Shown in pieces: positions 1,372-24,691 of a DNA stretch of 25,660 nucleotides. Each line of letters opens with the position of its first letter. The stretch's first letter is position 1. A program made the translations under genes and the position numbers. The stretch comes from a virus (lineage: Duplodnaviria > Caudoviricetes): positions 1 through 25,660 of the IMG/VR virus record IMGVR_UViG_3300044453_000224. One strand, written 5' to 3'. The notes beneath the pieces were generated by a model that did no database searches, was not told where the DNA came from, and saw nothing but the letters and a program-made list of their open reading frames with translations.

Positions 1372-1402
1372 TTACTTACGTCAGAGCAGGATGCAGTTTC
1401 CC
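1372..1402 (-). promoter_or_regulatory. Putative phage-sigma promoter, copy 1 (GGGAAA-N13-TGACGTAAGTAA)
   Basis: Minus strand GGGAAA ctgcatcctgctc TGACGTAAGTAA in the terminase-gpW gap. Same boxes and spacing at 12227-12257 and 17332-17362. Confidence 0.75.
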
Positions 1403-1406
1403 AACT

Positions 1407-3683
1407 TTACCGGCGTTGTCGTTTCTGCTGCTTGAGAGCTGATAATTTTACTGGCTTACTGCGCGGTTGGGCACCAGTCGTAGCAAGCGTTGGCAGCGTC
1501 ACCCCGAGCATTGATGCACCGACCGCACAACCGACGAGTCCATCCCACAAGTGATTATCGCTGATCGACGGACGTAATTTCCATTCATTCACTTGGCGAC
1601 CACGGCCTTCGGTAAGCACCCAATACTCAGACGTGCAGTGCTCGGCGAGCATGCGGTGCAGTTCAGGCTGGCGGCCAAATACACTTAAACCGCCATGATC
1701 ACCCATCGGTGTCGCCAGTCGGGTATGGACAAACGATTTCCAATAGTTGGTGTCGTACAGTACATGGCGTATAGCGCGGCGACCAACTAAAGCTGGTACG
1801 CGCCAGTTGAGACCAATCAGGTCACCTGGCTTGCGCTTGTAAGCATTGAACGGTTGTGAACTGGCCCCGGCGTATCGCCCATGACTGGGATAGAGCTGGC
1901 TATTTAATGGTGCTGATTGGCAGAAATTATAAACGATATCGGTGGACTGTCCCCAGTTGGCGTCGATCAATAACCGCTCCAAGCCGAGTGCGGCACCATC
2001 GTCACGTTGCCAGCGACGCGCTAACAGTCGTTCGACCAAACGTTTCAAAGCTGCATGCAGCGCGCCTTCCCAACCCACACCACCAGCAACAGCAAGCAAG
2101 GTCGGGTCGGCATCACGCAAGGTAAAATAGTTTCGTTTTTGGTCCGGTTCCGCGCCATAATCCAACACCCAGCCCGTAAAGTCGTCAGCCCAGCCGCAGA
2201 TAATCCAATATAATAATGCCCCTTGTACGTCGATAAATCCGGTGATGTGTTGTAACGCAATCGGCGCACGTCCACGGCGGTAGCCATTCACTCGCGCCAT
2301 AATGTCATCGACGGTCAGTTGCTCATCGGTGCCGGTATCATCGGCCAAGGGCTGGTTTTGATATTCCGACCAAAACGCTGCCTCGTCTTGTAGTTTAAGA
2401 TTCATCGCATGCTGAATCGCTGAGGCTTCGTCAGGATTAAACCGCGCAGGCCACGACACGACTGCACCTTGATCCATCGCGGTTTGATGTTTGCGATAAA
2501 ATACCGTCGCGGCTTCGATGGTACCAACGGCGCGCAAAGTATCAGCGCGCAGTGTCGCGTACTCATCCCAGAGTTTTGTATTGGTGGGAAAGGACTCGAC
2601 CATTTTGGTGCGTTCACCATTCCACTCTGGATGTAGCTCTCGGTCGAGAATGCGGTCAGCCATGTCACCGGGACGAATCACCGTGCAGGGCATCACGCCG
2701 GTAATTTTCTTACCTGGTCCGGCTAAACCCAACACCGCTCCGGCAATGATCCGTTCACGAGTGGCGCATTGCGAGAGTGAGCGTGCTGACTCATCGGTTT
2801 GCGGATCGTCAGGAATGACCAAATCAGGCCGCACCGTACTGCCATCAGCCAGCTTGTGTTTCATGCCGCGAATGCGGCCCGTGAGTCCAGCGACACGAAT
2901 AATCGAACCACTGGCAACAGAATCGGGAATGGTCGGCAAAATAATTTCTTTAGCGGTCCACGTAATCAGTGTGCGCTCACCGTCACAGAGCTGGCCCGAA
3001 CAGCGGTTGGCGATGCCCTCCAGGCGATGAATCGGATAGACAATTTCGGGGAAATCTTCGAGCAACAGCTCATTGGTTTCCATTTCGGTTTTAATACTAT
3101 CAAGCATCGACCCGGCGTGATCTTCATCGGCACCGATCAGACAAACAAAGCGCCGATGACCGTAGAGAATCGCCCACAGTCCACCGCATTCCGCCAAGAC
3201 CGATTTGCCCGTACCGCGTGGGGCAGCCACCGCGAACAAGCCACCCTGCAAAACGGATTGCTCAATGCGGCTGATAATCCGGTCATGGATCGGCGACCAA
3301 TCCAAGTGAAAGGTGTTCGGGCAGTAGGCTTCGCAAAAGCGTTTCAAATCACGCTCACAGGTCGCTTTGCGGGCCGGATCAACGACCTGTGGCAATGGTG
3401 CAATATCTCGACCAGCACGCGCAATTGAGGCATTGCGTTGGCGAGCGGCTTCTTTGCGGGCTTCGTAATCGCGTGCTGGTTCGTTGCTGCGTGGCTGATG
3501 TTTTTGATCAGCAATCCAGGCCGCATAGCGCAAGAAGTTGATGCGCGAGCCAGCGCCCAAACGCAAACCTGCCCGTGTGCGATGACGGCCCAAATGTCGT
3601 TCAGAAATAACTGGACCAAGCGGCGTGCTATTAAGCACCCGCGCCAACTGGCTCGGTCGCAACTGCGTCAGGTCAAGCTCCAC
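1407..3683 (-). CDS. Terminase large subunit, GpA-like
   Basis: Walker A APRGTGKS, PDDPQ Walker-B region, nuclease motifs GFIDVQ and NHLWDGLVG; lies upstream of the portal. Start is GTG 3683 (GAGGT upstream) or ATG 3695. Confidence 0.88.
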   Translation of the reverse strand: MELDLTQLRPSQLARVLNSTPLGPVISERHLGRHRTRAGLRLGAGSRINFLRYAAWIADQKHQPRSNEPARDYEARKEAARQRNASIARAGRDIAPLPQVVDPARKATCERDLKRFCEAYCPNTFHLDWSPIHDRIISRIEQSVLQGGLFAVAAPRGTGKSVLAECGGLWAILYGHRRFVCLIGADEDHAGSMLDSIKTEMETNELLLEDFPEIVYPIHRLEGIANRCSGQLCDGERTLITWTAKEIILPTIPDSVASGSIIRVAGLTGRIRGMKHKLADGSTVRPDLVIPDDPQTDESARSLSQCATRERIIAGAVLGLAGPGKKITGVMPCTVIRPGDMADRILDRELHPEWNGERTKMVESFPTNTKLWDEYATLRADTLRAVGTIEAATVFYRKHQTAMDQGAVVSWPARFNPDEASAIQHAMNLKLQDEAAFWSEYQNQPLADDTGTDEQLTVDDIMARVNGYRRGRAPIALQHITGFIDVQGALLYWIICGWADDFTGWVLDYGAEPDQKRNYFTLRDADPTLLAVAGGVGWEGALHAALKRLVERLLARRWQRDDGAALGLERLLIDANWGQSTDIVYNFCQSAPLNSQLYPSHGRYAGASSQPFNAYKRKPGDLIGLNWRVPALVGRRAIRHVLYDTNYWKSFVHTRLATPMGDHGGLSVFGRQPELHRMLAEHCTSEYWVLTEGRGRQVNEWKLRPSISDNHLWDGLVGCAVGASMLGVTLPTLATTGAQPRSKPVKLSALKQQKRQRR

Positions 3684-3870
3684 GCGCAACCTCATGCACC
3701 AGCCATGCAGTGTAGGCGATCAGGTTCAGCGTCCCGTCAGCGTTGGTTGGCGCACCAGCAGCGATGTCAGCTTGCACCGCTGCTGCCGTAACATGCTCCG
3801 CGCCTGAAGCCTGTAGCAGTTCGGCCATCTTCTCAGGCGTGAGAGAACCAGCGGCAGGCTCGGTGGGCAT
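3673..3870 (-). CDS. Small DNA-binding protein, putative terminase small subunit (Nu1-like)
   Basis: ATG 3870 with AGGAG RBS. HTH-like start (LTPEKMAELL). Overlaps the terminase start and lies just downstream of the cos-like site. Confidence 0.65.
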   Translation of the reverse strand: MPTEPAAGSLTPEKMAELLQASGAEHVTAAAVQADIAAGAPTNADGTLNLIAYTAWLVHEVARGA

Positions 3871-7231: not shown

Positions 7232-9450
7232 TTACTTGAGCCAGTGAGCGAGAAAACTACGGCGCTTATCGGCCTGCACGGTTTGCGCGCAGTGCTTCAT
7301 GCCCCAGGCATCACCAATTAAAATACAGGCCCGCGCTGCACGAGTGACGGCGGTATAAAGCCAATTGCGGTGATGCTGAAAGCTGTGGGCTTTATGGCAG
7401 ATCACGATCACACAGGGCCACTCACTGCCTTGCGCTTTATGCACAGTCAAGGCATAGGCGAGTTGGAGCCGATCCCATTTTGCTTTTGGCACTCGCACTA
7501 CGCGCCGATCAAAACGGATTGCCAAGGCATCGACTGGCTTGCCATCGTCATTGGTGATCGTGGTGCGATCTTCAATGACCCCAATTTGTCCGTTAAACAC
7601 ATCCAGGTCATAATCATTGCGGGTCCACACGACTTTATCACCGATGAGCAGTGGTTGTCGTTTGCCAAAGCCGCCAACGCGCCATGCCGCCTCGATGCGA
7701 TCATCGCCGTGGACCAATCGTTGGATGAAGACGTTGAGCGCTTTGGTACCGAGTGGTCCTTGATGGGTCGGTGTCAATATCTGTACGTCGCGCAAACGCT
7801 GTGTGCCGGTGTAGCCAAGCTTATCTGGGATAATTTCTTGCCAGAGTTGTTCAAGAACACCAGGGATGCGTCCGACGTTTTGATGGTTATTGAGCACATG
7901 CCAACTGGTGCGCTGTTCATGGAGCATGCTGTCATCATCGCGGGCTGTCTTGGCGAGTTCACCATCTAGCACCGCCAAACTGTTTGCACGCAGTACCCCG
8001 GCTTGCCGCATTACTTGATGCAGTTCGGTAATCGGCAGGGAATCGGTTGCTAAGACATCGCGCAAAAACGCGCCCGCGCCAACGGGTGGTAGCTGGTTTT
8101 TATCACCGACAAACACGACATGGGTATGCGCAGTATCGAGCGCTGCTGTTAGGCGATAGCTCAGCTCCACGTCATTCATGGATGTTTCATCGACAATGAC
8201 AAGATCAGCATCGAGCGGGTTGTCCTCGTTACGCTGCCAGCCCTCAACAGGGCTATACTGCAAGAGGCGATGGTGGTCATGGCTTCAATGTCACAGCCAG
8301 CCTTGCCGACTTGTTCAGCCATACGCTGGGCTGCTTTGCCAGTCGGCGCAGCCATGGCGACGCTGAAGCCAGCATGAGTAGCAATACGAACAATCGTCGC
8401 GATGGTAAATGTTTTGCCGACTCCGGCCCCACCAGTAATGACGCTGGCACGATGGGTAAAAGCTGACAATGCTGCCAAGTTTTGTTGTTCATTCATGTGA
8501 GCGGGCAGCTGGGCCAAGACCGTTACTTCATCGAGCAACGGATCATTGGTCGCGTTGGCATCGTGTATCCAGTCAGCAACGGCTTGCTCCCATTCGGCGA
8601 TGTGTGGCAAGCAATACGCAGTCGTCGTACCCAGGCGATGCCGTCCTACGTCATCGCATACCACCAGAGCATCGAGCTGGTTGGCAATCAGCGTTGTTGC
8701 GTCGAGTTCGTCGAGAGCCAAGACGTTGACCCCGTCGCGCACCAAGTCGGCATGTGCCATCCAGCAATGACCCTCACGAGTGCTTTCTTTGATGAGATGT
8801 AGTAAACCTGCTCGCACGCGGCCCGGATGTCGTTTGGCAACACCGAGTCGTTGCGCGACTTGATCAACCCGTGCAAAGCCCAAGCCGTCCGCCGCACCAA
8901 CCAAGCGATACGGATCCTCTGCTAAAAGAGCGGCAGCATTGGGACCGAGTGTTTGGCAAATGGTCGTGATTTGATGATACGTCAAACCATACGCAGCGAG
9001 TCGCGTGGCAACCGCATTGACGTTCGCACACGCCTGCCACGACTGTGCAAGTTGTGCCACATGATCGGGATTAAGGCCAAAGGCCTTGCAAAGTTCTTCT
9101 GGCCGGTGCACTAATACATCACCAAACTCGGCGCCATAGCGTTTGGCAATTTGCTGTCCTTTTTTCGGACCAATACCTTTAGCATCCGGATGCACGGCTA
9201 AGAAATGCGCCAACCCGGCAGCATCCAGAGGCAGATCAATAGTCATCGTGGTCGCGGCAAATTGACGTCCGTATTTCGGATGCACCGACCAGACACCATG
9301 GAGCGTGATGGTTTGCCCGCTGCTAAGGAGCGCCGGGCAGGTGAAGGTCTGCGGTTGGCATTGATCAGACGGAACAATCGTGCCGATAGTGAAGCGGTCG
9401 TTGCTGAAGCGAATGTGCCGAACGGTGCCGGCCAGCGTCGTAGTACTCAT
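7232..9450 (-). pseudogene. recD2: RecD2/TraA-like SF1B helicase split by a 1-bp deletion at 8273/8274
   Basis: The 5' ORF carries HPKYGRQF, HhH GIGPKK, GGAGVGKT and APTGKAA. The 3' ORF carries IVDETSM, GDKNQLPPVG, YALTVHKAQGSE and LYTAVTRA. Adding one T restores MTIHRLLQY. A sequencing error is also possible. Confidence 0.85.
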
Positions 9451-9923
9451 GAAATATCCTTGCCGTGCAAACGGCGTGCTGTGCGTGCTAACCAGGCTGT
9501 TGCCCACAGGCGGGCATGCGGTCGGTCACCAGCGAAAAAAACGGGAACCTGATAGTCAACCTGAGCAGAAAGAGCTCGACCCAGAATGGCGCGGGGAGCG
9601 GCGGCAGAGCGCTGATGTTGGGCAAAAACATCTGGCAATCCGGCTTCAACGACGATCACTGCGGTGGTGAGCGCACTCAATCGTTGTAGTTCACGGTGCC
9701 ATCGCTCGGCGTCATGGATGACCGTGTGCGTCCAGTCAGCCAACGATTTGCGCTCGATAACGCACTCCTGCTCCAAACCAGCCAGCGAATAATCACCGGT
9801 TGCGAGCGTTGCCGGTTGCACCGCAATGTCGGGTTCAGCCCACGTCCACGGGCGTTGTTCGCGTCGATCAACAAGAATGGTGAGACGCGGGTTACGCCCG
9901 TGGCGTGCGCTGTTACCTGGCAT
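9447..9923 (-). CDS. ERCC4-domain nuclease (putative resolvase)
   Basis: ILVDRREQ, LATGDYS and IERKS motifs; coupled to both neighbours. Confidence 0.88.
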   Translation of the reverse strand: MPGNSARHGRNPRLTILVDRREQRPWTWAEPDIAVQPATLATGDYSLAGLEQECVIERKSLADWTHTVIHDAERWHRELQRLSALTTAVIVVEAGLPDVFAQHQRSAAAPRAILGRALSAQVDYQVPVFFAGDRPHARLWATAWLARTARRLHGKDIS

Positions 9924-12226: not shown

Positions 12227-12257
12227 TTACTTACGTCAGCACGTTGGCTGATTTCCC
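12227..12257 (-). promoter_or_regulatory. Putative phage-sigma promoter, copy 2
   Basis: Minus strand GGGAAA tcagccaacgtgc TGACGTAAGTAA(TTCC), between the sigma stop and the exonuclease gene. Confidence 0.75.
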
Positions 12258-12263
12258 ATGTTT

Positions 12264-12809
12264 TTAGCAGTAGCCATCCAGACCGGCTTGACGGAACACA
12301 CGTCTGATGTCCTCAATGGCCTGATAGACCTTGCGTTTTGAAATACCAAGCATGCGTGAGACCGCATAGGCCGAATGGTGCGGCAATAGGCGACAAATAT
12401 CCTGCTGAATTGCCGATAATTTTTGCATGACCGTTGCAATATCTGTTTTTAAATCTGCATGGTTGATGGCGCTGCCAGCCTGGGGATCGATTAAGGTATC
12501 GGCTTGCTGCCCAGATTCTTCATCGCTATCGAAAACGATGGCGCGGTCTTTGAATGCATCACGGCACTGGCGACGCTGGCGGCGAATCAGATCAACGGAG
12601 CGCCGTTCCAAGCAACGGGTAAGATAGGTTGACCATTTCCCGGCAGCCTCGTTAAAGGACTGGTGGCAGATGAGTGCCTGCTGGGCCAGTTCTTGCTTGA
12701 GATCGTCGCGGTCATTTTCGGTAAAACCGTGACGGCCAATCAAGCGACTGACATGGTGGTGAATCGTGGTCTCGGTGTACTCGTCGAGACAGTCTACAAA
12801 TAGTGGCAT
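12264..12809 (-). CDS. Phage sigma-70 family (ECF-like) sigma factor
   Basis: Region 2 DRDDLKQE...FNEAAGKWSTYL...RSVDLIR; region 4 HTH AVSRMLGISKRKVYQAI. Confidence 0.85.
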   Translation of the reverse strand: MPLFVDCLDEYTETTIHHHVSRLIGRHGFTENDRDDLKQELAQQALICHQSFNEAAGKWSTYLTRCLERRSVDLIRRQRRQCRDAFKDRAIVFDSDEESGQQADTLIDPQAGSAINHADLKTDIATVMQKLSAIQQDICRLLPHHSAYAVSRMLGISKRKVYQAIEDIRRVFRQAGLDGYC

Positions 12810-12981: not shown

Positions 12982-13914
12982 TTACTGATAGAGGAGCGGG
13001 TTGAAATCCTGAATGCGATATTCGTCTTCGGCAATGGCCCAGAGTTCTTGGACTTTGTGGCCAAGCGGTGAGCTATCTTTAAGGCGGCGACTGATGGTTG
13101 ATTCGGTGGTGTCACAGAGCTTGGCAAAATGTTTTTGCTCTGGTCGTGGCAGAATTGTGCCCGTCTTTCGCCAAGTGTCTTGTGATGAGCGAATATGCGC
13201 GACCAATTCTTGCCGCAGTTTATCAAGGCCAGCTTGCTTGGTGGCTGTCTTGGCAACCTTTGGTTTCCGTGCTGGGGCGCTTGGCGTTAGAACTTCGATC
13301 AGATCTTCGACCAGCGATATGAGTTGATGGGTGTCGTCGTCTTCATCTAAGTATGCCCACAGGGTATGACTCAACGCGACATCCGGACAATAATCTGGTA
13401 CGTTGAGTTGCGGACCAAATGACAGCAAGACGGTTCGAGGTGTGAGTCCTAGGCTATCCCATTGCGCTCGTTTCGATCCTTCCGGTATATCGCGAACAAA
13501 CACGAAACGAAAACGCATATCGCCGATGGAAATGCGAGGCAGGCACCAGGCTGAATCAGTCAGTGCTTCAGCTGCGTGTCGAGAGCCAAGTGCAGTGCCA
13601 AACCAATTGATGAGCGCATGGTGATCTACGCGATATTGCTGGAACAGTGCCGAGTCAACGGATTGAAAACCGGCATCGGGGCAATGCACAAAGAAGCGGC
13701 TACTGTCGGTCGGACTGCGGTGGATTTCCACATCGTGTATCTCCGAACAGGCTGGGCAGGGAATGCGGCTGGCATGGCCAGAACGAACCAGGAACCCGGC
13801 ATCGAGCAAAGCAGAGCCGACGCCAGGGGTCCATGTGTCGAGGTCAGCTTGCGTGACATGGTGATCACGCAGCGGACTAAGCGCTTGCAGCGCGTGGGTG
13901 CTCGTCGGAAACAT
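12982..13914 (-). CDS. Hypothetical protein with Cys/His cluster and C-terminal HTH
   Basis: CPACSEIH...HCPD; C-terminal QKHFAKLCDTTESTISRRL is HTH-like. Confidence 0.75.
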   Translation of the reverse strand: MFPTSTHALQALSPLRDHHVTQADLDTWTPGVGSALLDAGFLVRSGHASRIPCPACSEIHDVEIHRSPTDSSRFFVHCPDAGFQSVDSALFQQYRVDHHALINWFGTALGSRHAAEALTDSAWCLPRISIGDMRFRFVFVRDIPEGSKRAQWDSLGLTPRTVLLSFGPQLNVPDYCPDVALSHTLWAYLDEDDDTHQLISLVEDLIEVLTPSAPARKPKVAKTATKQAGLDKLRQELVAHIRSSQDTWRKTGTILPRPEQKHFAKLCDTTESTISRRLKDSSPLGHKVQELWAIAEDEYRIQDFNPLLYQ

Positions 13915-15091
13915 CGACGCCCCAATCCATCAATAGTTGTTCGCCAATTTGTTGATAGTGATCTTTGAGATTGCCAACATTGCAGGCCCCAATGCGACTG
14001 ACGCCAAAGCTAAATGCGGGGATGCGACCACCAGCAGCGGGACGCGGCAAATGGACGCTGAAGACTACCCGTTGCAGGTCGATATTGTGAATCGGAATCC
14101 GGCGTGTGTTCAGCCACTCGGCAAATACGTCGTAGATGTCCTCTGGCCCTTTATCAGGGTCAGCCTTGATCGTCATGGAGCGCTTACCACCACCGAGCAC
14201 CCGTAAGCGAACTTCCTTGATTCGGGCGTCTTGCACCACAGTGGGGTCAAACGGCAAGGTGCGTTGATAGCGCAAGTGGTCGAGCTGATAACTGCCCACG
14301 CGGCGATTATCCAGGTCAAATTCTACTGGCACTGACGGCACGCAGCGACCAAAGATGCGTAAGATTTCATTACGAACCGGATTGCCACCAGTGGCAGATA
14401 CATCAGCGAGACCACCGTTCATCGGGCACCGAATGTAGACCGTGAACACGCGGCCTGCGTCGATTTCGCGCTTGAGGGCATTTTGGCTGGTGAGCACTTC
14501 GCGGGCGACGGGATAATCCGACAGGTATACACTGAACAAACAGGTACCATCTTCGCGCTGATCGACTTCGATCACGCCAAATTGTCCGCGCGCCTCATGT
14601 TGTTTGTAATAGGCCGAGAGAGCTTGGCGGAATTGCTCGCAGGTCTGCTCATCCGTCCGAGGTACGAACGCGGGCAAATCGTCATAGCGTTGCCATGAAC
14701 GACCGTAGGCCAGGTCGTCGGCAGTGGCAAAGCGCACGATAGTATCCCAGATGTCGTGCTGCTCGACTGCTACAGACATGACAAAATCAAGGACATGATC
14801 AGCCTGCTCAAGGGCGACCGTCTGGTCGATATTTTTGAACATACGGCAGGCTTCGAGGATGGATCGAATGCCGATTTCACTGGTCATGGCGAGCACGTCG
14901 TAGAAATCAGCTGCGACCGTTGCGTTGGTCGCATCATCCAAGGCCTCCCAGGCGGCTTGCACCTCTGGCCATTGGCTGGAATCCAGCGTGTCCCAATCAA
15001 GGCCAAGATCGATGCCTTTGGAGTGGAAGTAGTTACGGAGAGTGGTGAGCGTGGTCCGGCGGAACACTTGGCTCGGTTTGAAACGCAGCAT
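13877..15091 (-). CDS. Hypothetical phage protein (404 aa)
   Basis: Long ORF with AAGGAG RBS; overlaps the next gene; no recognised motif. Confidence 0.8.
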   Translation of the reverse strand: MLRFKPSQVFRRTTLTTLRNYFHSKGIDLGLDWDTLDSSQWPEVQAAWEALDDATNATVAADFYDVLAMTSEIGIRSILEACRMFKNIDQTVALEQADHVLDFVMSVAVEQHDIWDTIVRFATADDLAYGRSWQRYDDLPAFVPRTDEQTCEQFRQALSAYYKQHEARGQFGVIEVDQREDGTCLFSVYLSDYPVAREVLTSQNALKREIDAGRVFTVYIRCPMNGGLADVSATGGNPVRNEILRIFGRCVPSVPVEFDLDNRRVGSYQLDHLRYQRTLPFDPTVVQDARIKEVRLRVLGGGKRSMTIKADPDKGPEDIYDVFAEWLNTRRIPIHNIDLQRVVFSVHLPRPAAGGRIPAFSFGVSRIGACNVGNLKDHYQQIGEQLLMDWGVDVSDEHPRAASA

Positions 15092-15372
15092 TGGTTAAAC
15101 TCCTTCAGTCATGCGTCAGGTCAAAAAGGCGGAGCCAAACACACGGTGTATCTGGTCCTCTACCACCTATACGCCAGGCGGTAACAGCGGCCCCAGACAC
15201 GAGGAGTTCCAGGCCACTATCCTATGTACGCTGAGCGGTAACAAGGAATGGCGCTGGCAATGGCCTATATAGGTCTATACTGACACAAATGCAAGTCTCT
15301 CTTTGGAAGTCGTTACAGAGGCAGCAATTACGATCTTGTTATTGGGATACGTTTCCTATCTTAGCCCTCTTT

Positions 15373-16083
15373 ATGCCTTACGACCACGCTATGACAGTCT
15401 CATTACCTGATGAAGGTGAATGGATTGACTCGACTGATGCCGAGTTGATGGAGGCCATACGCCTGTGGAACGATGACCGGCCTTTTGCGCTTGGTGCCTT
15501 TCAAGCATTGTATGCTCGCCACGCTCAGTTCGTCGCGAATCAGTGCGCGAATGCCTGTCAGGCACGACCATTACGCGATTTCGGTCACTTGGACCTCCAG
15601 CAAAAAATCTGGATCAAGGTTCGCGCGAAAGCGGACTCATTTAAGCCTGAACGAGGTAAACTCGTAGGCTGGCTAGCACGTATGATCCATAACGCCTACA
15701 TGGACGAGCTTCGTGCTCGCAAAAATCTTCCATTGTGTGCTCTACCTGATTGTCCCGAAGCTTATCCTGCGGAGCTCATGGGCTACGTGGTCGGTGACGC
15801 GCCGGCTACCCGGCAATGTCGTTGGGTGCTTGCGCTACGAGATTGTTTGCAAGATTTGCCGACCAAAGAGCAAACAGTGGTAGAAGCCTCTGCACCGCAT
15901 TATCATCCACCAGACATGAACTGCACCATGAGTACAGAAGAAACAGATGCCCTAGCGACACGGCTCGGTACGACGCGGGCATCTGTGAAAGCGTATCGCA
16001 GCCGGGGGTTGAAAAAGTTGCGCATCTGCATCCAACATAAGTTGGCGGAACACGGTATAGATGTGGAGGAGAAACGTGGCTAA
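15373..16083 (+). CDS. ECF-type RNA polymerase sigma factor
   Basis: AFQALYARH, DLQQKIWIKV and FKPERGKLVGWLARMIHNAYMDELR (region 2); LATRLGTTRASVKAYRSRGLKKLR (region 4). Start uncertain (15289, 15373 or 15391). Confidence 0.85.
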   Translation: MPYDHAMTVSLPDEGEWIDSTDAELMEAIRLWNDDRPFALGAFQALYARHAQFVANQCANACQARPLRDFGHLDLQQKIWIKVRAKADSFKPERGKLVGWLARMIHNAYMDELRARKNLPLCALPDCPEAYPAELMGYVVGDAPATRQCRWVLALRDCLQDLPTKEQTVVEASAPHYHPPDMNCTMSTEETDALATRLGTTRASVKAYRSRGLKKLRICIQHKLAEHGIDVEEKRG

Positions 16084-16423
16084 GGCTCACCAACACGACC
16101 ATACCGAGACGATCCTTGATGCGATGGCGCTGCTTGGCTGGCGTGATGCACGTCCTGATTTTAATTGGGATGCTTACCAGCGAGCAGAAGGCCCAGCTGA
16201 AGTGCTCGCATTTGATCAGGTTGTGGCTGCTTTAGACGACGATGCTCAGCAGGAAACGAGCGAGCAAGATTGCGCTCCTATTCCCTTTGTGATTCCTGAG
16301 GCTGTCGAAACCAATATGCGGATGGTGGCACGTAACGGTCAAGATATTCCGGACGAAATTGCTCAGAAAATGCAGCGAGATCGTTTAGCGGCCCAGGCGG
16401 CCCAGGATAATAACGATGCTTGA
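16076..16423 (+). CDS. Small acidic protein, candidate anti-sigma or peptidase substrate
   Basis: GTG 16076 with GGAGGA RBS; overlaps both the sigma stop and the peptidase start. Function inferred from position. Confidence 0.7.
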   Translation: MAKAHQHDHTETILDAMALLGWRDARPDFNWDAYQRAEGPAEVLAFDQVVAALDDDAQQETSEQDCAPIPFVIPEAVETNMRMVARNGQDIPDEIAQKMQRDRLAAQAAQDNNDA

Positions 16424-17318
16424 TGCGCGGCAGCAGAGCGTCGCGCAATTGGCTGAAACATTGGCGTGTTCTTATTTCCCGACAGGGCGTGTTGACCCCG
16501 AAGCCATTATTTCTGATCAGGGTAACGTGACGTTTTCGCGTTCTGAATACGGCGACTACTTTGACGGCCAGCTCCAGTATGTGCAGGGTCAGTTTCATAT
16601 TTTCTGCAACACTGAAGGTAGAAACGAACGACGTCAGCGTTTTACGCTCGGCCATGAATTGGGGCATTATTTTATAGATGAGCACCGCTTGTGGTTGGAG
16701 TCCCATCCAGACTTGCCACATTGCTCCTTCTGTCTCGACGACAGTGACCGACCTGGCAAAGCCATTGAGGTCGAAGCCGATTGTTTTGCCGCCAGCCTCT
16801 TACTTCCAGAGCGCTCTTTGCGAAAAAAAGTTGGGACACCTGCCGCTACTGCTGAAGTTATTCTGAACACGGCTGATTATTTTGATGTTTCTTTAACGGC
16901 AACAGCGCTGCGGTTTGCCAACTTAGAATTGTTCCCATGCGTGCTCATGCATTGGGATCGCACTGGGACGCGAACATGGATACGAGCATCAGCTTGGATG
17001 TTTCAAAATTATGGTGGACGTGTCTGGCGCAGTGATTTGCAGGGCATGGATGATTCTGTAACCGCGCGCGTGCTCCGTGATCCAGACGGAGCAAGCCGCA
17101 TCGAAGAAGCAACCTCAGTATTGGAAGCCTGGTATCCTGGCTTGGAACAACGGATGAACCAACATAAGCGCCAATTCGCCCAGTGTGCCGTCGACACCAT
17201 TACTGAATACGCCTTGAACTTAGGGCCTCATGGTGTGCTGACCGTTTTGACTAGTAATGAACTATGGAAGAAATGGCGTACTCAGCGCCAGTCAAACGCA
17301 GGAACCTCAGCACAATAA
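16416..17318 (+). CDS. ImmA/IrrE family zinc metallopeptidase
   Basis: RFTLGHELGH (HExxH), EVEADCFAASLLLP, HTH-like ADYFDVSLTATALRF, and an extended C-terminal domain as in IrrE/CapP. Confidence 0.92.
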   Translation: MLDARQQSVAQLAETLACSYFPTGRVDPEAIISDQGNVTFSRSEYGDYFDGQLQYVQGQFHIFCNTEGRNERRQRFTLGHELGHYFIDEHRLWLESHPDLPHCSFCLDDSDRPGKAIEVEADCFAASLLLPERSLRKKVGTPAATAEVILNTADYFDVSLTATALRFANLELFPCVLMHWDRTGTRTWIRASAWMFQNYGGRVWRSDLQGMDDSVTARVLRDPDGASRIEEATSVLEAWYPGLEQRMNQHKRQFAQCAVDTITEYALNLGPHGVLTVLTSNELWKKWRTQRQSNAGTSAQ

Positions 17319-17331
17319 AAACAAGCTTGGC

Positions 17332-17362
17332 GGGAAATAGAACCGCATCATGACGTAAGTAA
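17332..17362 (+). promoter_or_regulatory. Putative phage-sigma promoter, copy 3
   Basis: GGGAAA tagaaccgcatca TGACGTAAGTAA(TTCC) upstream of the ParB-like gene. Confidence 0.75.
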
Positions 17363-17403
17363 TTCCCTGGGTCGTCACTACACAGACCCAGGGAGTGCGG
17401 CGC

Positions 17404-18033
17404 ATGCATATCGAGCAATGGCCTATTGAACGGGTCCAACCGTTTCCTGGCAATCCGCGTAAAATAACCGAAGCAGCTATCGACAATGTGGCGCAGTCCT
17501 TGGCCGCATTTGGTTGGCGGCAACCGCTGGTTGTCGATGCAGACAGTGTGCTGATCGTTGGCCATGTGCGCTATCTTGCGGCGCGGAAATTGGCAATGAC
17601 CGACGTACCAGTGCATGTCGCCGATAATTTAACACCAGAACAAATTGCTGCGTATCGATTAGCTGACAATCGCGTCGGTGAAGATTCCTCATGGCATGAA
17701 GGTTTATTAACGCAGGCATTGCAAGATTTAACTGGCGACATGCAGCAAGTGACTGGTTTTAGCAGCGATGAATTAAATCGATTAGTTGGCACATTAATCG
17801 ACAACACCGAACAAAGTCATCAAGAGTTGGACACGGTCGTTGCTGATGTTAGTTGCGAGGCCGATCCTGATTCTACCGATGATGACGGTAAAGAACTTGG
17901 CGCGACGACTAACGATTTTACCTATCAAGAACAATTCGGAGTCATGGTCATTTGCGAGAGCGAACGACATCAGCAACAGGTGTACGAATCACTCCAGGCT
18001 GACGGTCATAACTGTCGGGTGGTGGTGGTATGA
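17404..18033 (+). CDS. ParB/Srx N-terminal domain protein with small C-terminal domain
   Basis: PGNPRK, SLAAFGWRQPLVVD, VGHVRYLAA and AYRLADNR motifs; acidic linker; about 36-aa C-terminal module. Confidence 0.88.
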   Translation: MHIEQWPIERVQPFPGNPRKITEAAIDNVAQSLAAFGWRQPLVVDADSVLIVGHVRYLAARKLAMTDVPVHVADNLTPEQIAAYRLADNRVGEDSSWHEGLLTQALQDLTGDMQQVTGFSSDELNRLVGTLIDNTEQSHQELDTVVADVSCEADPDSTDDDGKELGATTNDFTYQEQFGVMVICESERHQQQVYESLQADGHNCRVVVV

Positions 18034-19175
18034 AAATTGAAGTATGCAACCAATGCAGTGACTTTCATTCCTACCGATCTGCTCGGGTGAAATCATTATT
18101 TAATGCTGAATCAGGAGCGAATTTTAATCTCGATGTGGATCTTGATTTGGCACCGGATGAAGATTGGCGTATTGGTGTGGTTGTCGGCCCATCAGGATCG
18201 GGCAAGACATCTATCGGGCGACAGTTCTTTGATAACGAACCGGCTTGGTTTGAGCCAGCTTGGCCAGAAGATGTGCCGATTATTGATGCCATTGATCCAG
18301 ATGGGGATTTCAATGCTGTCACCGCAGCACTCAGTGCTGTCGGTTTGGGAACTGTGCCTGCGTGGCTGCGACCATTTCATGCCTTATCGATGGGTGAACA
18401 ATTCCGCGCAACACTAGCGCGGTTATTACTCGAAGCGCCTACCCAATCTGTCATCGATGAATTTACCTCCGTCGTGGATCGGCAAATTGCGCGAATCGGT
18501 GCGTTGGCCTTTGCTAAAGCTTGGCGACGGCTCAAGCCAGCACGCCAAGTGGTTTTGCTGACTCCGCATTATGATGTCCTGGAGTGGCTGCAACCTGATT
18601 GGGTGTATGATACCGGAAAACACGCCTTTCAACGGGGGTGGCTTCGGCGACCTTCCATCGAACTCGATATTCTCCAGACAGACTGGCGTTATTGGCCGCT
18701 CTTTGAACCGCATCATTATTTGAAAGCACCGCTCATGCCCGCATCGAAATGCTATGTGGGCACGGTCGATGGGGAATTAGTCGCCCACCTTGCGGTCAGT
18801 TGTAAGAACAAAGGTAAGCATGTTGAAGCGCGTGCTTGTCGTTTGGTCGTGATGCCGGAATGGCAGGGTGCAGGCGTTGGTTTACGATTTTTGAATTGGA
18901 TCTGTCAGCATCAGCTTGATGGCGGTGATGGTGCGCGTTTGCCTTATCCCGCGACGACTGTTTTTCATACCAGCCATCCTGGATTATGTGCAGCACTGCG
19001 CCGGATGCCACAGTGGACGCAACTCTCAGCTAAATTACATGGCGGTAAAAAGGGTCCGAAGTCCTGCCAGATGAATCGCCATAAAAAAGTATTTCTTGGC
19101 ACTGGTTACGGCGGTCATTTCCGTGCAGTGCAAGGCTTTCGCTACATTGGCACACAGGAGTCAGCGCATGTATGA
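18030..19175 (+). CDS. Soluble ABC-type ATPase fused to a GNAT acyltransferase
   Basis: Walker A GPSGSGKT, signature LSMGE, Walker B VIDEF, H-loop TPHYD. C-terminal RLVVMPEWQGAGVG is the GNAT CoA-binding motif. No permease nearby. ATGA-coupled to the ParB-like gene. Confidence 0.88.
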   Translation: MKIEVCNQCSDFHSYRSARVKSLFNAESGANFNLDVDLDLAPDEDWRIGVVVGPSGSGKTSIGRQFFDNEPAWFEPAWPEDVPIIDAIDPDGDFNAVTAALSAVGLGTVPAWLRPFHALSMGEQFRATLARLLLEAPTQSVIDEFTSVVDRQIARIGALAFAKAWRRLKPARQVVLLTPHYDVLEWLQPDWVYDTGKHAFQRGWLRRPSIELDILQTDWRYWPLFEPHHYLKAPLMPASKCYVGTVDGELVAHLAVSCKNKGKHVEARACRLVVMPEWQGAGVGLRFLNWICQHQLDGGDGARLPYPATTVFHTSHPGLCAALRRMPQWTQLSAKLHGGKKGPKSCQMNRHKKVFLGTGYGGHFRAVQGFRYIGTQESAHV

Positions 19176-19782
19176 TCCCGACCCCTTACGACTTGGCTTG
19201 GTTGGTTCGCGTTCGTTTGGCCGCGCTGTTCTAGAATTACTTGATCATCGTAGTGGCGTCGTTGTCGAGCAGGTGATTGCCCCGACTGGCGATGCGTTGG
19301 CCCGTGCTGCCGGAGAACGCTATGCAGGCGCTTGGCTGAGCGATGAGGTGATATTTCCCAATTGTGATCTGTATATTGCCGCGCAGTGCCAGACATTTAT
19401 TGCACCCCAGGTACTTGCATCGCCCAAGCTGGGTGTGCTTGCCTGGCATCCAAGTTTACTACCTGTGCATCGTGGCGGCGATGCCGTGCGGTGGACCATT
19501 CGAGATCGTGATCGCATCGCGGGCGGTTCGATTTATTGGATGACGGACCGCGTTGATGCTGGTCCCATCGCTCGTCAGGATTGGTGTTTTGTGCAACCAG
19601 ACGACACCGCCAGTTCGCTATGGCGACGAGAATTGTTCCCGATGGGTTTGCGGTTATTGGATGCGGTTATTGGTGATGTCTTGATGGGCCGTGAACAGCG
19701 CAGGCCACAAGACGAAACAGTGGCCACTTGGGAGCCAGTTTTTAAGCAACCTGATTTACGTACTCAGAAAGGAATATCATGA
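19168..19782 (+). CDS. Stand-alone 10-formyl-THF-dependent formyltransferase core domain
   Basis: ATG 19168 with AGGAG RBS; HPSLLPVHRGG and VDAGPI motifs; lacks the C-terminal tRNA-binding domain of Fmt. Confidence 0.88.
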   Translation: MYDPDPLRLGLVGSRSFGRAVLELLDHRSGVVVEQVIAPTGDALARAAGERYAGAWLSDEVIFPNCDLYIAAQCQTFIAPQVLASPKLGVLAWHPSLLPVHRGGDAVRWTIRDRDRIAGGSIYWMTDRVDAGPIARQDWCFVQPDDTASSLWRRELFPMGLRLLDAVIGDVLMGREQRRPQDETVATWEPVFKQPDLRTQKGIS

Positions 19783-19824
19783 TGGCAGTTGTGTCGATGA
19801 TGCTATGTTTGGTGTGTAGTACCT

Positions 19825-20247
19825 ATGCCGATCTATCATGCGCTTTCTCTCAAACAGCCGTGGGCCAACTTGATCCGCGATGGCCACAAAACCATCGAGA
19901 CCCGCAGTTGGCAAACGAACTATCGTGGCGAATTATTGCTCTGTTCGAGCAAGCAACCTGCTATCGCTCCGGCAGGCATGGCAATTGCACTAGTGACAAT
20001 AGTCAATTGCCGGTTGATGGCTACCGGAGATTGGCACCACGCCTGCATCGATCCGACCGGCCAACGGCTTCGCATGACCACCGCAGCAGCGGCACTACTG
20101 GACATCGAACCGGTCGTGCTCCCACCGCGCGCAAAAACGTTTGGTTGGCATCTAGAACAGATCAGGCCCGTAGAACCCGTACCAGTAACAGGGACGCTCG
20201 GCGTGTTCCAAATCGAACTGCCAGAACTGCGAGTACTCGCTCTCTAA
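19825..20247 (+). CDS. ASCH (PUA-like) domain protein
   Basis: ALSLKQPWANLIRDGHKTIETRSW...YRGELLL and C-terminal PVTGTLGVF are typical of ASCH. Confidence 0.9.
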   Translation: MPIYHALSLKQPWANLIRDGHKTIETRSWQTNYRGELLLCSSKQPAIAPAGMAIALVTIVNCRLMATGDWHHACIDPTGQRLRMTTAAAALLDIEPVVLPPRAKTFGWHLEQIRPVEPVPVTGTLGVFQIELPELRVLAL

Positions 20248-23887: not shown

Positions 23888-24691
23888 CTATATATTATTG
23901 TTTTCGATAGATTTTACTGAATCAGTGAGCACATAATGGACAAATTGTCTGCCTAATTCGGTCAATTCATATGGCTCAGTATCATCAAAAGCAGATTTGT
24001 AAGTGCCACCAGACCCTTTTGGTCTACGAGACTGTTTAATGAAATTGCCAGCATAGTCAGTTGGGCGATGTTGCCGAATAACACCGCCCGTACTGAGGTC
24101 TCTCACTAGCAGCTTAAAAAGATCTGCTTCCGCTGAATTTTCAGCCGGTCTTTGACCCGCAGTTGCATTCCAAATTTGCCCGCGAGTGGCTCCAGGGTTA
24201 TTGAAAACATGCCCGATAACATCGAAGTGAAAATCAGAGTAGACATTGATCCATTCGGCGAACAGCATAACTACTCGGTCATCGCATAAATCGGTTCCGG
24301 CAGCATTGACTATGATATTTCGTATCGCTGTAATTCGCGATTCCGACGTAGCTTGATCATAATTTTGAAATGATTTACGAGTTATTTGCAGGAACGATTC
24401 ATCTGAAATCCGCGATTCGACCCTCTCTCCGAGGTCATCTAATCGAGCTGTGATATCAGAAACGAGTCCAGCTAAATCTGCAATCTTTCTTTTATGTTCA
24501 TCGATCCAATCTTTTTGCATTTGGTTGACTTTGCCTTGTTCTGCTTCGGCATCAAAGGCTGCGCAGGCAGCCAAGAATCCCCCAACCCATGGAATAACGC
24601 TGAGCGTAGCGAGAACAAAGCGTGAGTATTTTTTCCTGCCTGACTCTGATTGCATCAATGCGTAGGCATCTTGTTCTGATAGTTGGTTCAT
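23888..24691 (-). CDS. Hypothetical cargo protein (267 aa)
   Basis: Intact ORF, visibly AT-richer than the phage core, convergent with the recombinase operon. Confidence 0.8.
   Translation of the reverse strand: MNQLSEQDAYALMQSESGRKKYSRFVLATLSVIPWVGGFLAACAAFDAEAEQGKVNQMQKDWIDEHKRKIADLAGLVSDITARLDDLGERVESRISDESFLQITRKSFQNYDQATSESRITAIRNIIVNAAGTDLCDDRVVMLFAEWINVYSDFHFDVIGHVFNNPGATRGQIWNATAGQRPAENSAEADLFKLLVRDLSTGGVIRQHRPTDYAGNFIKQSRRPKGSGGTYKSAFDDTEPYELTELGRQFVHYVLTDSVKSIENNNI

Follow-up and report, generated by a model that had tools for sequence, protein, structure and literature searches.

What does a phage make with a gene cassette in which an ABC-type ATPase, fused to a GNAT acyltransferase, stands between a ParB-like protein and a formyltransferase? 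This question is raised by DNA of a virus of the Caudoviricetes (IMG/VR virus record IMGVR_UViG_3300044453_000224, positions 1 to 25,660); this whole stretch of 25,660 nucleotides was analysed and is called the window below. A preliminary description of the window had proposed that four genes together acylate or formylate bases of the phage DNA. These genes, which are part of a prophage, are arranged as follows:

17404-18033, plus strand: ParB-like gene, ATG start, with an alternative in-frame GTG at 17395
18030-19175, plus strand: ABC-GNAT gene, 4-bp ATGA overlap with the ParB-like gene
19168-19782, plus strand: formyltransferase gene, 8-bp overlap with the ABC-GNAT gene
19825-20247, plus strand: ASCH gene, after a gap of 42 bp behind the formyltransferase gene

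The layout described for them, all on one strand with the first three overlapping, is confirmed by the coordinates of the open reading frames (ORFs) as well as by Pfam, which assigned ParB_N, ABC_tran together with Acetyltransf_1/7, Formyl_trans_N and ASCH, respectively. PHROGs profiles back all four labels too.

A survey of related loci reveals that the conserved unit consists of a C-terminal ParB tail of about 45 residues, the ABC-GNAT protein and an optional formyltransferase. Homologues of the ABC-GNAT are numerous, with 6339 matches among 8000 candidates scored, and occur in 61 GenBank phage records and three plasmid records; the complete three-gene core is present in some cultured phages, such as Axumite and Ligma of Gordonia terrae. 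The composition of the cassette was determined for 68 loci, 64 of them from pattern scans that cover the close clade only (56-75% identity) and four from chosen cultured phages. Here, the ParB tail was found in 62 loci, the formyltransferase in 47, the ParB-N domain in 25 and ASCH in five (three adjacent), and three of the six loci lacking the tail start inside the ABC gene. When the 60 full-length ABC proteins were clustered, 43 groups resulted; 41 of them have the tail, and of 41 informative groups 32 have the formyltransferase. At 58 of the 60 loci scored, the stop codon of the tail and an ABC start overlap, and in half of the loci having a tail (31/62) it stands alone as an ORF of less than 100 amino acids. 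ParB-N is dispensable in the cassette. The four-gene system was rejected as such: ASCH adjoins the cassette in 3/68 loci, all of them close relatives, and is absent in the nearest relative, L038.

The association of the formyltransferase with ABC-GNAT homologues, in turn, was supported when the search was reversed. Of 415 viral formyltransferase loci the best 80 were retained, and the ABC-GNAT gene lies upstream in all 80, directly in 78 and across inserted genes in two; the tail was present in 64/64 loci with enough DNA, and an ASCH-profile match follows in 2/65. The same neighbourhood was seen in all 14 of the best cultured-phage matches. Furthermore, ABC, GNAT and formyltransferase are fused in two database proteins, which are single sequences and could be frameshift artefacts. 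As the formyltransferase is accompanied by the ABC-GNAT in every locus examined and not vice versa, the dependence is one-way: the formyltransferase needs the ABC-GNAT.

To which type of formyltransferase does the cassette enzyme belong? The protein matches PF00551, comprises about 200 amino acids and has no C-terminal subdomain. PHROGs labels it phosphoribosylglycinamide formyltransferase, and in GenBank it is annotated as PurN-like or as an enzyme acting on tRNA. Identity with Fmt or PurN was rejected on the basis of the curated families, where it scores 56.6 bits against a cut-off of 201.5 (Fmt) and 35.6 against 150.1 (PurN). Its nearest solved relatives among the matches listed are N-terminal domains of 10-formyltetrahydrofolate (10-formyl-THF) dehydrogenase (FDH, ALDH1L1). 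A profile was built from 39 phage formyltransferases that were selected for lying next to the ABC gene; with 60 of 76 matches listed, it found six FDH N-domains at 148-152 bits, Fmt at no more than 94 and PurN at no more than 57 bits. In all 39 sequences His94, Ser96 and Asp130 are invariant, and none of them has an Asn two residues before the catalytic His. The Asn-x-His motif is present in the rows of Fmt, PurN, PurU, ArnA-like enzymes and non-ribosomal peptide synthetases, three rows excepted, of which one is divergent and two do not match the motif. The corresponding tally over the 80 loci was not used, since there the scan pattern itself fixed the motif. In a quick tree of 59 rows, phage, ACT-fused and FDH sequences are separated from 26 other rows with Asn-x-His with an SH-aLRT (Shimodaira-Hasegawa-like approximate likelihood ratio test) support of 98. 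The phage enzymes are close relatives of the N-domain of the animal folate enzyme ALDH1L1, sharing with it the clade, the His/Ser/Asp triad and the missing Asn; they differ from FDH in having no C-terminal subdomain, carrier domain or aldehyde dehydrogenase domain.

According to the accessible parts of two reports on FDH (PMC4388273, PMC8748788), His106 and Asp142 are catalytic, position 104 is Ile, and the Ile104Asn exchange leaves less than 10% of the activity; a thiol attacks the formyl group, the natural acceptor being 4'-phosphopantetheine. The portions consulted of PMC11730586 and PMC6802093 describe formation of formyl-coenzyme A (formyl-CoA) from 10-formyl-THF by LctF in vitro and propose the same for HypX; both proteins are chemical precedents for a thiol acceptor only and are set beside the phage enzyme by description. 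By sequence, the cassette formyltransferase is an enzyme of the FDH/ALDH1L1 N-domain type, and by analogy it is predicted to transfer formyl to a pantetheine thiol.

Related proteins were also noted outside the phage cassettes. Stand-alone bacterial proteins of about 310 amino acids resembling the ALDH1L1 N-domain are encoded in genomes labelled Binatia and Chloroflexota (L097:5831-6754, L098:5694-6851, L099:5702-6856), and ACT-fused formyltransferases (P0123-P0126, P0133) group with the phage enzymes with a support of 100, which suggests that they are a regulated cellular offshoot. A stand-alone cellular FDH-like protein occurs in three of five host genomes with formyltransferase-less cassettes, and in five genomes with complete cassettes the FDH-like motif is found in the phage copies only; such a handful of genomes carries little weight either way.

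The second component, the ABC-GNAT protein, matches phrog_11143 with an E-value of 4e-142. Its structural model (predicted local distance difference test score, pLDDT, 85.8) comprises an ABC nucleotide-binding domain (residues 1-206) and a GNAT domain (210-375), and both folds were matched, the ABC domain with a Z-score of about 15. The ABC motifs are intact and conserved over 147 sequences (Walker A, GPSGSGKT 53-60; signature, LSMGE 119-123; Walker B Asp-Glu, DE 143-144; D-loop, SVVD 147-150; H-loop, H180). That the ATPase has no membrane partner and is fused to a GNAT, as initially described, proved correct, as no permease family was detected by Pfam among the 28 window ORFs scanned. A role as ABC transporter was rejected on this ground and because the neighbours at other loci are mostly tail and terminase genes. 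In the GNAT domain, the loop Q279-G-A-G-x-G284 is invariant in 147/147 sequences; we take this QGAGxG loop to be the canonical loop for the pyrophosphate of CoA. A His-x-Tyr motif and Arg271 are invariant as well and were likened, by eye only, to His58, Tyr59 and Arg111 of Mom. A model of the GNAT alone reached a pLDDT of 80, and its profile gave one weak match against the sequences of the PDB. In the ESM Atlas, the GNAT retrieved viral clusters of generic GNATs and the ParB tail unnamed clusters. The predicted complex of ABC-GNAT and ParB tail with CoA included scored 0.02 and was used neither for nor against any interpretation.

A thiol-loading type of enzyme is thus tied to a CoA-binding acyltransferase, and this makes formyl-CoA the candidate link between the two. 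From this we infer the following route for the prophage cassette. From 10-formyl-THF and CoA the formyltransferase would produce formyl-CoA, whose formyl group the GNAT would then move onto an exocyclic amine of the phage DNA, with N4 of cytosine as the best guess for the acceptor. ATP would be spent by the ABC domain in order to clamp or open the DNA. The activator would be the ParB protein or simply its tail. Cassettes without formyltransferase would draw on acetyl-CoA or on formyl-CoA of the host. The acylated DNA would likely protect the phage against restriction. We regard acylation of a DNA base by the cassette, of whatever kind, as probable; the full route via formyl-CoA to the base falls somewhat short of an even chance. 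Doubtful is the widest version, a widespread phage pathway from folate via an ALDH1L1-type enzyme and formyl-CoA to an N-formylated base, likely N4-formyldeoxycytidine, with acetylation taking over once the formyltransferase is lost. Regarding the original suggestion that a folate-derived formyl group is placed on a DNA amine, the linkage to the formyltransferase stands; more likely, however, the formyl group travels via a CoA thioester, and the writer does without the formyltransferase in 15/62 informative loci.

Several points weigh against the route via formyl-CoA. The position within the FDH clade is, as a placement by sequence, no proof of a thiol acceptor. The formyltransferase tree stems from a quick search without bootstrap and contains neither HypX nor LctF among its rows, and HypX is not among the 60 of 76 profile matches listed. 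The N-domain of FDH by itself hydrolyses 10-formyl-THF to formate, as stated in the available parts of PMC4388273 and PMC8748788. The formyltransferase of the window departs from the consensus at Gln73, Trp93 and Gly104 and may be weakened. For the GNAT domain, the best fold matches among the 50 listed are generic small-molecule and protein acetyltransferases, and neither Mom nor TmcA is among these 50. Nor is the GNAT significantly similar to Mom or TmcA by profile in the shallow alignments used: against Mom, the hhalign probability was below 1% and hmmsearch was not significant in either direction (116 Mom rows against 147), and with the single E. coli TmcA motif A alone aligns (E 0.2-0.4). 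The ABC-GNAT may work like Mom and TmcA; it belongs to neither family. As regards the acceptor, N6-acyl adenine is reported to be unstable in the part of PMC13219725 consulted, which weakly hints at N4 of cytosine. Finally, when mapped on the ABC-GNAT tree (56 rows; four are unlabelled, and five loci that were truncated or near-duplicates were left out), the presence of the formyltransferase changes state seven times, and strong branches force at least four of these changes. No copy of it was found elsewhere in any of the five viral records checked, two of which are small fragments. Taken together, the repeated changes of state and the missing copy elsewhere in these records argue that formyl is not the sole donor.

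These last observations are also what would be expected if the GNAT acetylated DNA with acetyl-CoA in all cassettes and the formyltransferase were a helper that hydrolyses 10-formyl-THF or clears stray formyl groups. The repeated loss from the informative loci, the absence by annotation from the distant cultured phages P335, LE3 and EastWest and the hydrolase activity of the FDH N-domain (PMC4388273, PMC8748788, as far as accessible) all agree with this explanation. We nevertheless regard it as distinctly improbable, because the strict one-way linkage (80/80 and 14/14), the gene overlaps and the fusions suggest a direct hand-over, and because the hydrolysis by the FDH N-domain itself proceeds via a thiol according to the same partial sources.

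A further alternative concerns the substrate. The ABC-GNAT could acylate a protein or an RNA, such as a virion or packaging protein, the host RNA polymerase or a tRNA, with the formyltransferase still supplying formyl-CoA. The top fold matches among the 50 listed include RimI and N-terminal protein acetyltransferases, the genes around the cassette serve virion structure and packaging, some phage GNATs, phiKMV Rac for example, act on proteins of the host (PMC7824862, part consulted), and ASCH proteins of the GKER type deacetylate N4-acetylcytidine (ac4C) in tRNA (bioRxiv 10.64898/2026.02.27.708502, accessible part). However, the top structural matches are tied, reflecting the shared fold, simple acylation of a protein would hardly explain the fusion to an ATPase, and the ParB partner as well as a position corresponding to that of mom favour DNA. 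We therefore judge a protein or RNA target to be unlikely.

The argument for DNA as substrate is drawn from gene position, in the Mu mom slot or ahead of the terminase, and from the ParB partner only. A survey of 96 upstream and 78 downstream ORFs against PHROGs, in which some near-duplicates were skipped, covered the 64 scanned loci; at least 19 of them have the cassette ahead of the terminase, and at least 21 have it behind tail genes. Its position in phiE255 and Komp_PAO1_1 is the end of the late genes, behind those for tail fibre assembly, where Mu carries com-mom. Axumite, a Gordonia phage, has it as genes 1-3, ahead of the terminase, and in P335 and LE3, where no formyltransferase is annotated, distant relatives likewise lie before the terminase. 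Within the window's clade, mostly records of Planctomycetota, the cassette is located next to RadC. In a Burkholderia pyrrocinia prophage (L033 and L068) it was found in frameshifted pieces.

The ParB-like protein consists of ParB-N, an acidic linker and, at its C-terminus, a beta-alpha-beta tail (about 17884-18030) that contains a conserved Cys; it matches PF02195 and phrog_620, and its tail phrog_28816. A chromosome-segregation ParB was rejected, since the score for the Noc/ParB family is below the cut-off and the N-domain alone matches. For a phage ParB without DNA-binding domain, the accessible part of PMC13229309 reports activation of a thymine dioxygenase and little effect of mutations in NTP residues. 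The cassette protein resembles such activators in combining ParB-N and a short C-terminal domain beside a putative DNA modifier; for the dioxygenase both domains are required according to the same source, whereas about half of the cassette loci have just the tail in place of ParB. The proposal that ParB targets the writer is accordingly weak (ParB-N in 25/68 loci, tail alone in 31/62), and as the tail alone suffices in half of the loci, a role as activator fits better. At locus L004 (3713-4998), two tandem ParB-like genes lie directly upstream of the ABC-GNAT gene, and the tail was not detected.

The Cys of the tail is invariant in the 53 aligned sequences (53/53) and absent in the Porphyromonas locus L036, which lies outside that alignment. 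It might be this Cys, rather than CoA, that carries the formyl group from the formyltransferase to the GNAT, as FDH-type domains load thiols (PMC4388273, PMC8748788, parts consulted) and the tail stop overlaps the ABC start in 58/60 loci. Yet the Cys is retained in cassettes without formyltransferase and missing in L036, which has one, and the GNAT possesses a CoA loop, so that we rate this variant as highly improbable. Still another scheme has two steps, in which the GNAT adds an aminoacyl group like Mom and the formyltransferase caps its free amine as PurN does on glycinamide. Although this would account for the optional nature of the formyltransferase and for its PHROGs label, and although the His-x-Tyr motif and Arg271 recall the Mom residues by eye, the formyltransferase lies at a distance from PurN and Fmt, whose Asn it lacks, and the GNAT has the CoA loop that is missing in Mom and no profile match to it. 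This scheme appears very unlikely to us.

The fourth gene product, the ASCH protein, matches PF04266, has ASC-1 and EOLA1 as nearest solved relatives and is of the GxKxxExR type. A YqfB-type amidohydrolase was rejected, as the window motif GHKTIETR belongs to the GKER type and not to the octapeptide with Thr (GKTR). Proteins of the GKER type deacetylate ac4C in tRNA, as reported in the available part of bioRxiv 10.64898/2026.02.27.708502. Only L040, L041, L042 and L107 have a confirmed ASCH gene at the position that it occupies in the window. A motif scan of 142 loci gave 25 ASCH-like candidates; of those submitted to Pfam together with L127, L107 (adjacent) and L065 (distant) were confirmed, and L159, L174, L180, L060 and L127 were not. 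Small ORFs with an ASCH-like motif or a weak match to the ASCH profile, negative in Pfam, lie in or beside the cassette at L159:2569-2958 (minus), L174:3809-4258 (minus), L180:1055-1462 (plus) and L127:3667-4110 (plus). Taken together, ASCH is a lineage-specific passenger with a possible role as a deacylase, which may salvage acylated cytidine.

How does the cassette relate to systems already described? The core of the cassette has been predicted before: in the passage available to us, PMC7824862, crediting Iyer et al. 2013, predicts that a GNAT coupled to an ABC ATPase puts an uncharacterised acyl mark on a DNA base. No product, donor, formyltransferase or ASCH is mentioned there for the ABC-GNAT. 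As the preliminary description had supposed, a computational prediction thus exists, and only this prediction, but no characterised ABC-GNAT product, was found in the searchable literature, most subscription papers lying outside its coverage. The proposed DNA-modifying role fits this prediction as well as the gene contexts. The predicted system has the same fusion of GNAT and ABC ATPase domains, and Tenacibaculum pT24, the example phage in PMC7824862, matches the window protein with 35% identity over 75% of the query (tblastn E 3e-37). TmcA/NAT10 share with the cassette the fusion of ATPase and GNAT, the transfer from an acyl-CoA donor onto an exocyclic amine and an aligning Arg ahead of the motif A strand. 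They differ in their RNA substrate, in a helicase-like ATPase instead of an ABC-class one, and in an overall match to the cassette GNAT that is not significant (E 0.2-0.4). With Mu Mom the similarities are the GNAT fold, the slot after the tail fibre genes and a small overlapping upstream gene; Mom has no ABC domain and no QxxGxG loop and, according to the part of PMC13219725 consulted, uses Gly-tRNA as donor.

What is new here is the placement of the formyltransferase, by its sequence, with the thiol-formylating FDH clade, which provides a one-tube test, the formation of formyl-CoA, and a defined mass to look for. If the proposed route were true, it would mean a new DNA base and the use of formyl-CoA by phages. 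An N-formyl base is absent from the papers searched and would be labile enough to escape standard digests.

Is the cassette expressed together with other phage functions? The preliminary description had noticed a promoter-like motif common to the cassette and the replication and head operons. Three copies were indeed found, and the motif turned out to be larger than noted; the last of the following features is a hairpin in the leader of the cassette:

17332..17362, plus strand: two-part motif GGGAAA-N17-GTAAGTAA, upstream of the ParB-like gene
12227..12257, minus strand: second copy, upstream of the exonuclease-Sak4-SSB-RecD2-primase operon
1372..1402, minus strand: third copy, upstream of a 67-amino-acid ORF and the portal gene
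17364..17394, plus strand: 10-bp leader hairpin, spanning most of the likely ribosome-binding site of ParB

GGGAAA-N17-GTAAGTAA occurs exactly at three sites in the window, with a chance mean of 0.10. TGACGTAAGTAA likewise has three occurrences (chance mean 0.10; 0/100 shuffles reach three), upstream of the ParB gene, the exonuclease/recombination operon and the connector-portal genes. The same motif with the same spacing is present upstream of ParB in L064, one of 104 loci. Its shape, which resembles the consensus of extracytoplasmic function (ECF) sigma promoters, suggests an ECF-sigma-type promoter. The cassette would then be co-regulated with the replication and head genes, and the motif may be read by a phage-encoded sigma factor. 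Two sigma-70/ECF-type ORFs (sigma-70 region 2), a 120-amino-acid ORF and an IrrE/ImmA-type M78 peptidase are encoded at window positions 15289-17318 (plus) and 12264-12809 (minus), and these genes probably provide the lysogeny switch as well as the reader of the three promoter copies. In L038 and L064, too, M78 genes are found upstream of the cassette. The leader hairpin has a folding energy of -24.7 kcal/mol (z -3.46), and 0/200 shuffles fold equally well; compared with shuffles, the other two leaders of the window and that of L064 are not significant. As a conserved feature the hairpin was rejected, since it is not seen in L064.

As to the remainder of the window, Pfam and PHROGs identify portal, terminase, primase and recombination genes on the minus strand of its left side and RadC, DUF2924 and a serine recombinase on its right side. 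The large terminase subunit (1407-3695, minus, 762 amino acids) matches phrog_38 and phrog_15 with its two halves, as does that of L063. The RecD2-like helicase (7232-9507, minus) is split into two overlapping ORFs of 443 and 343 amino acids, consecutive parts of phrog_4412, by a frameshift that is either genuine or a sequencing error. Two ORFs of 310 and 404 amino acids (12982-15091, minus) gave no Pfam or NCBIfam match, the second one matching the unnamed phrog_37634. Just beyond the recombinase genes, an ORF of 267 amino acids (23888-24691, minus) with a lower G+C content of 0.44 and no family match is possibly a cargo or host gene.

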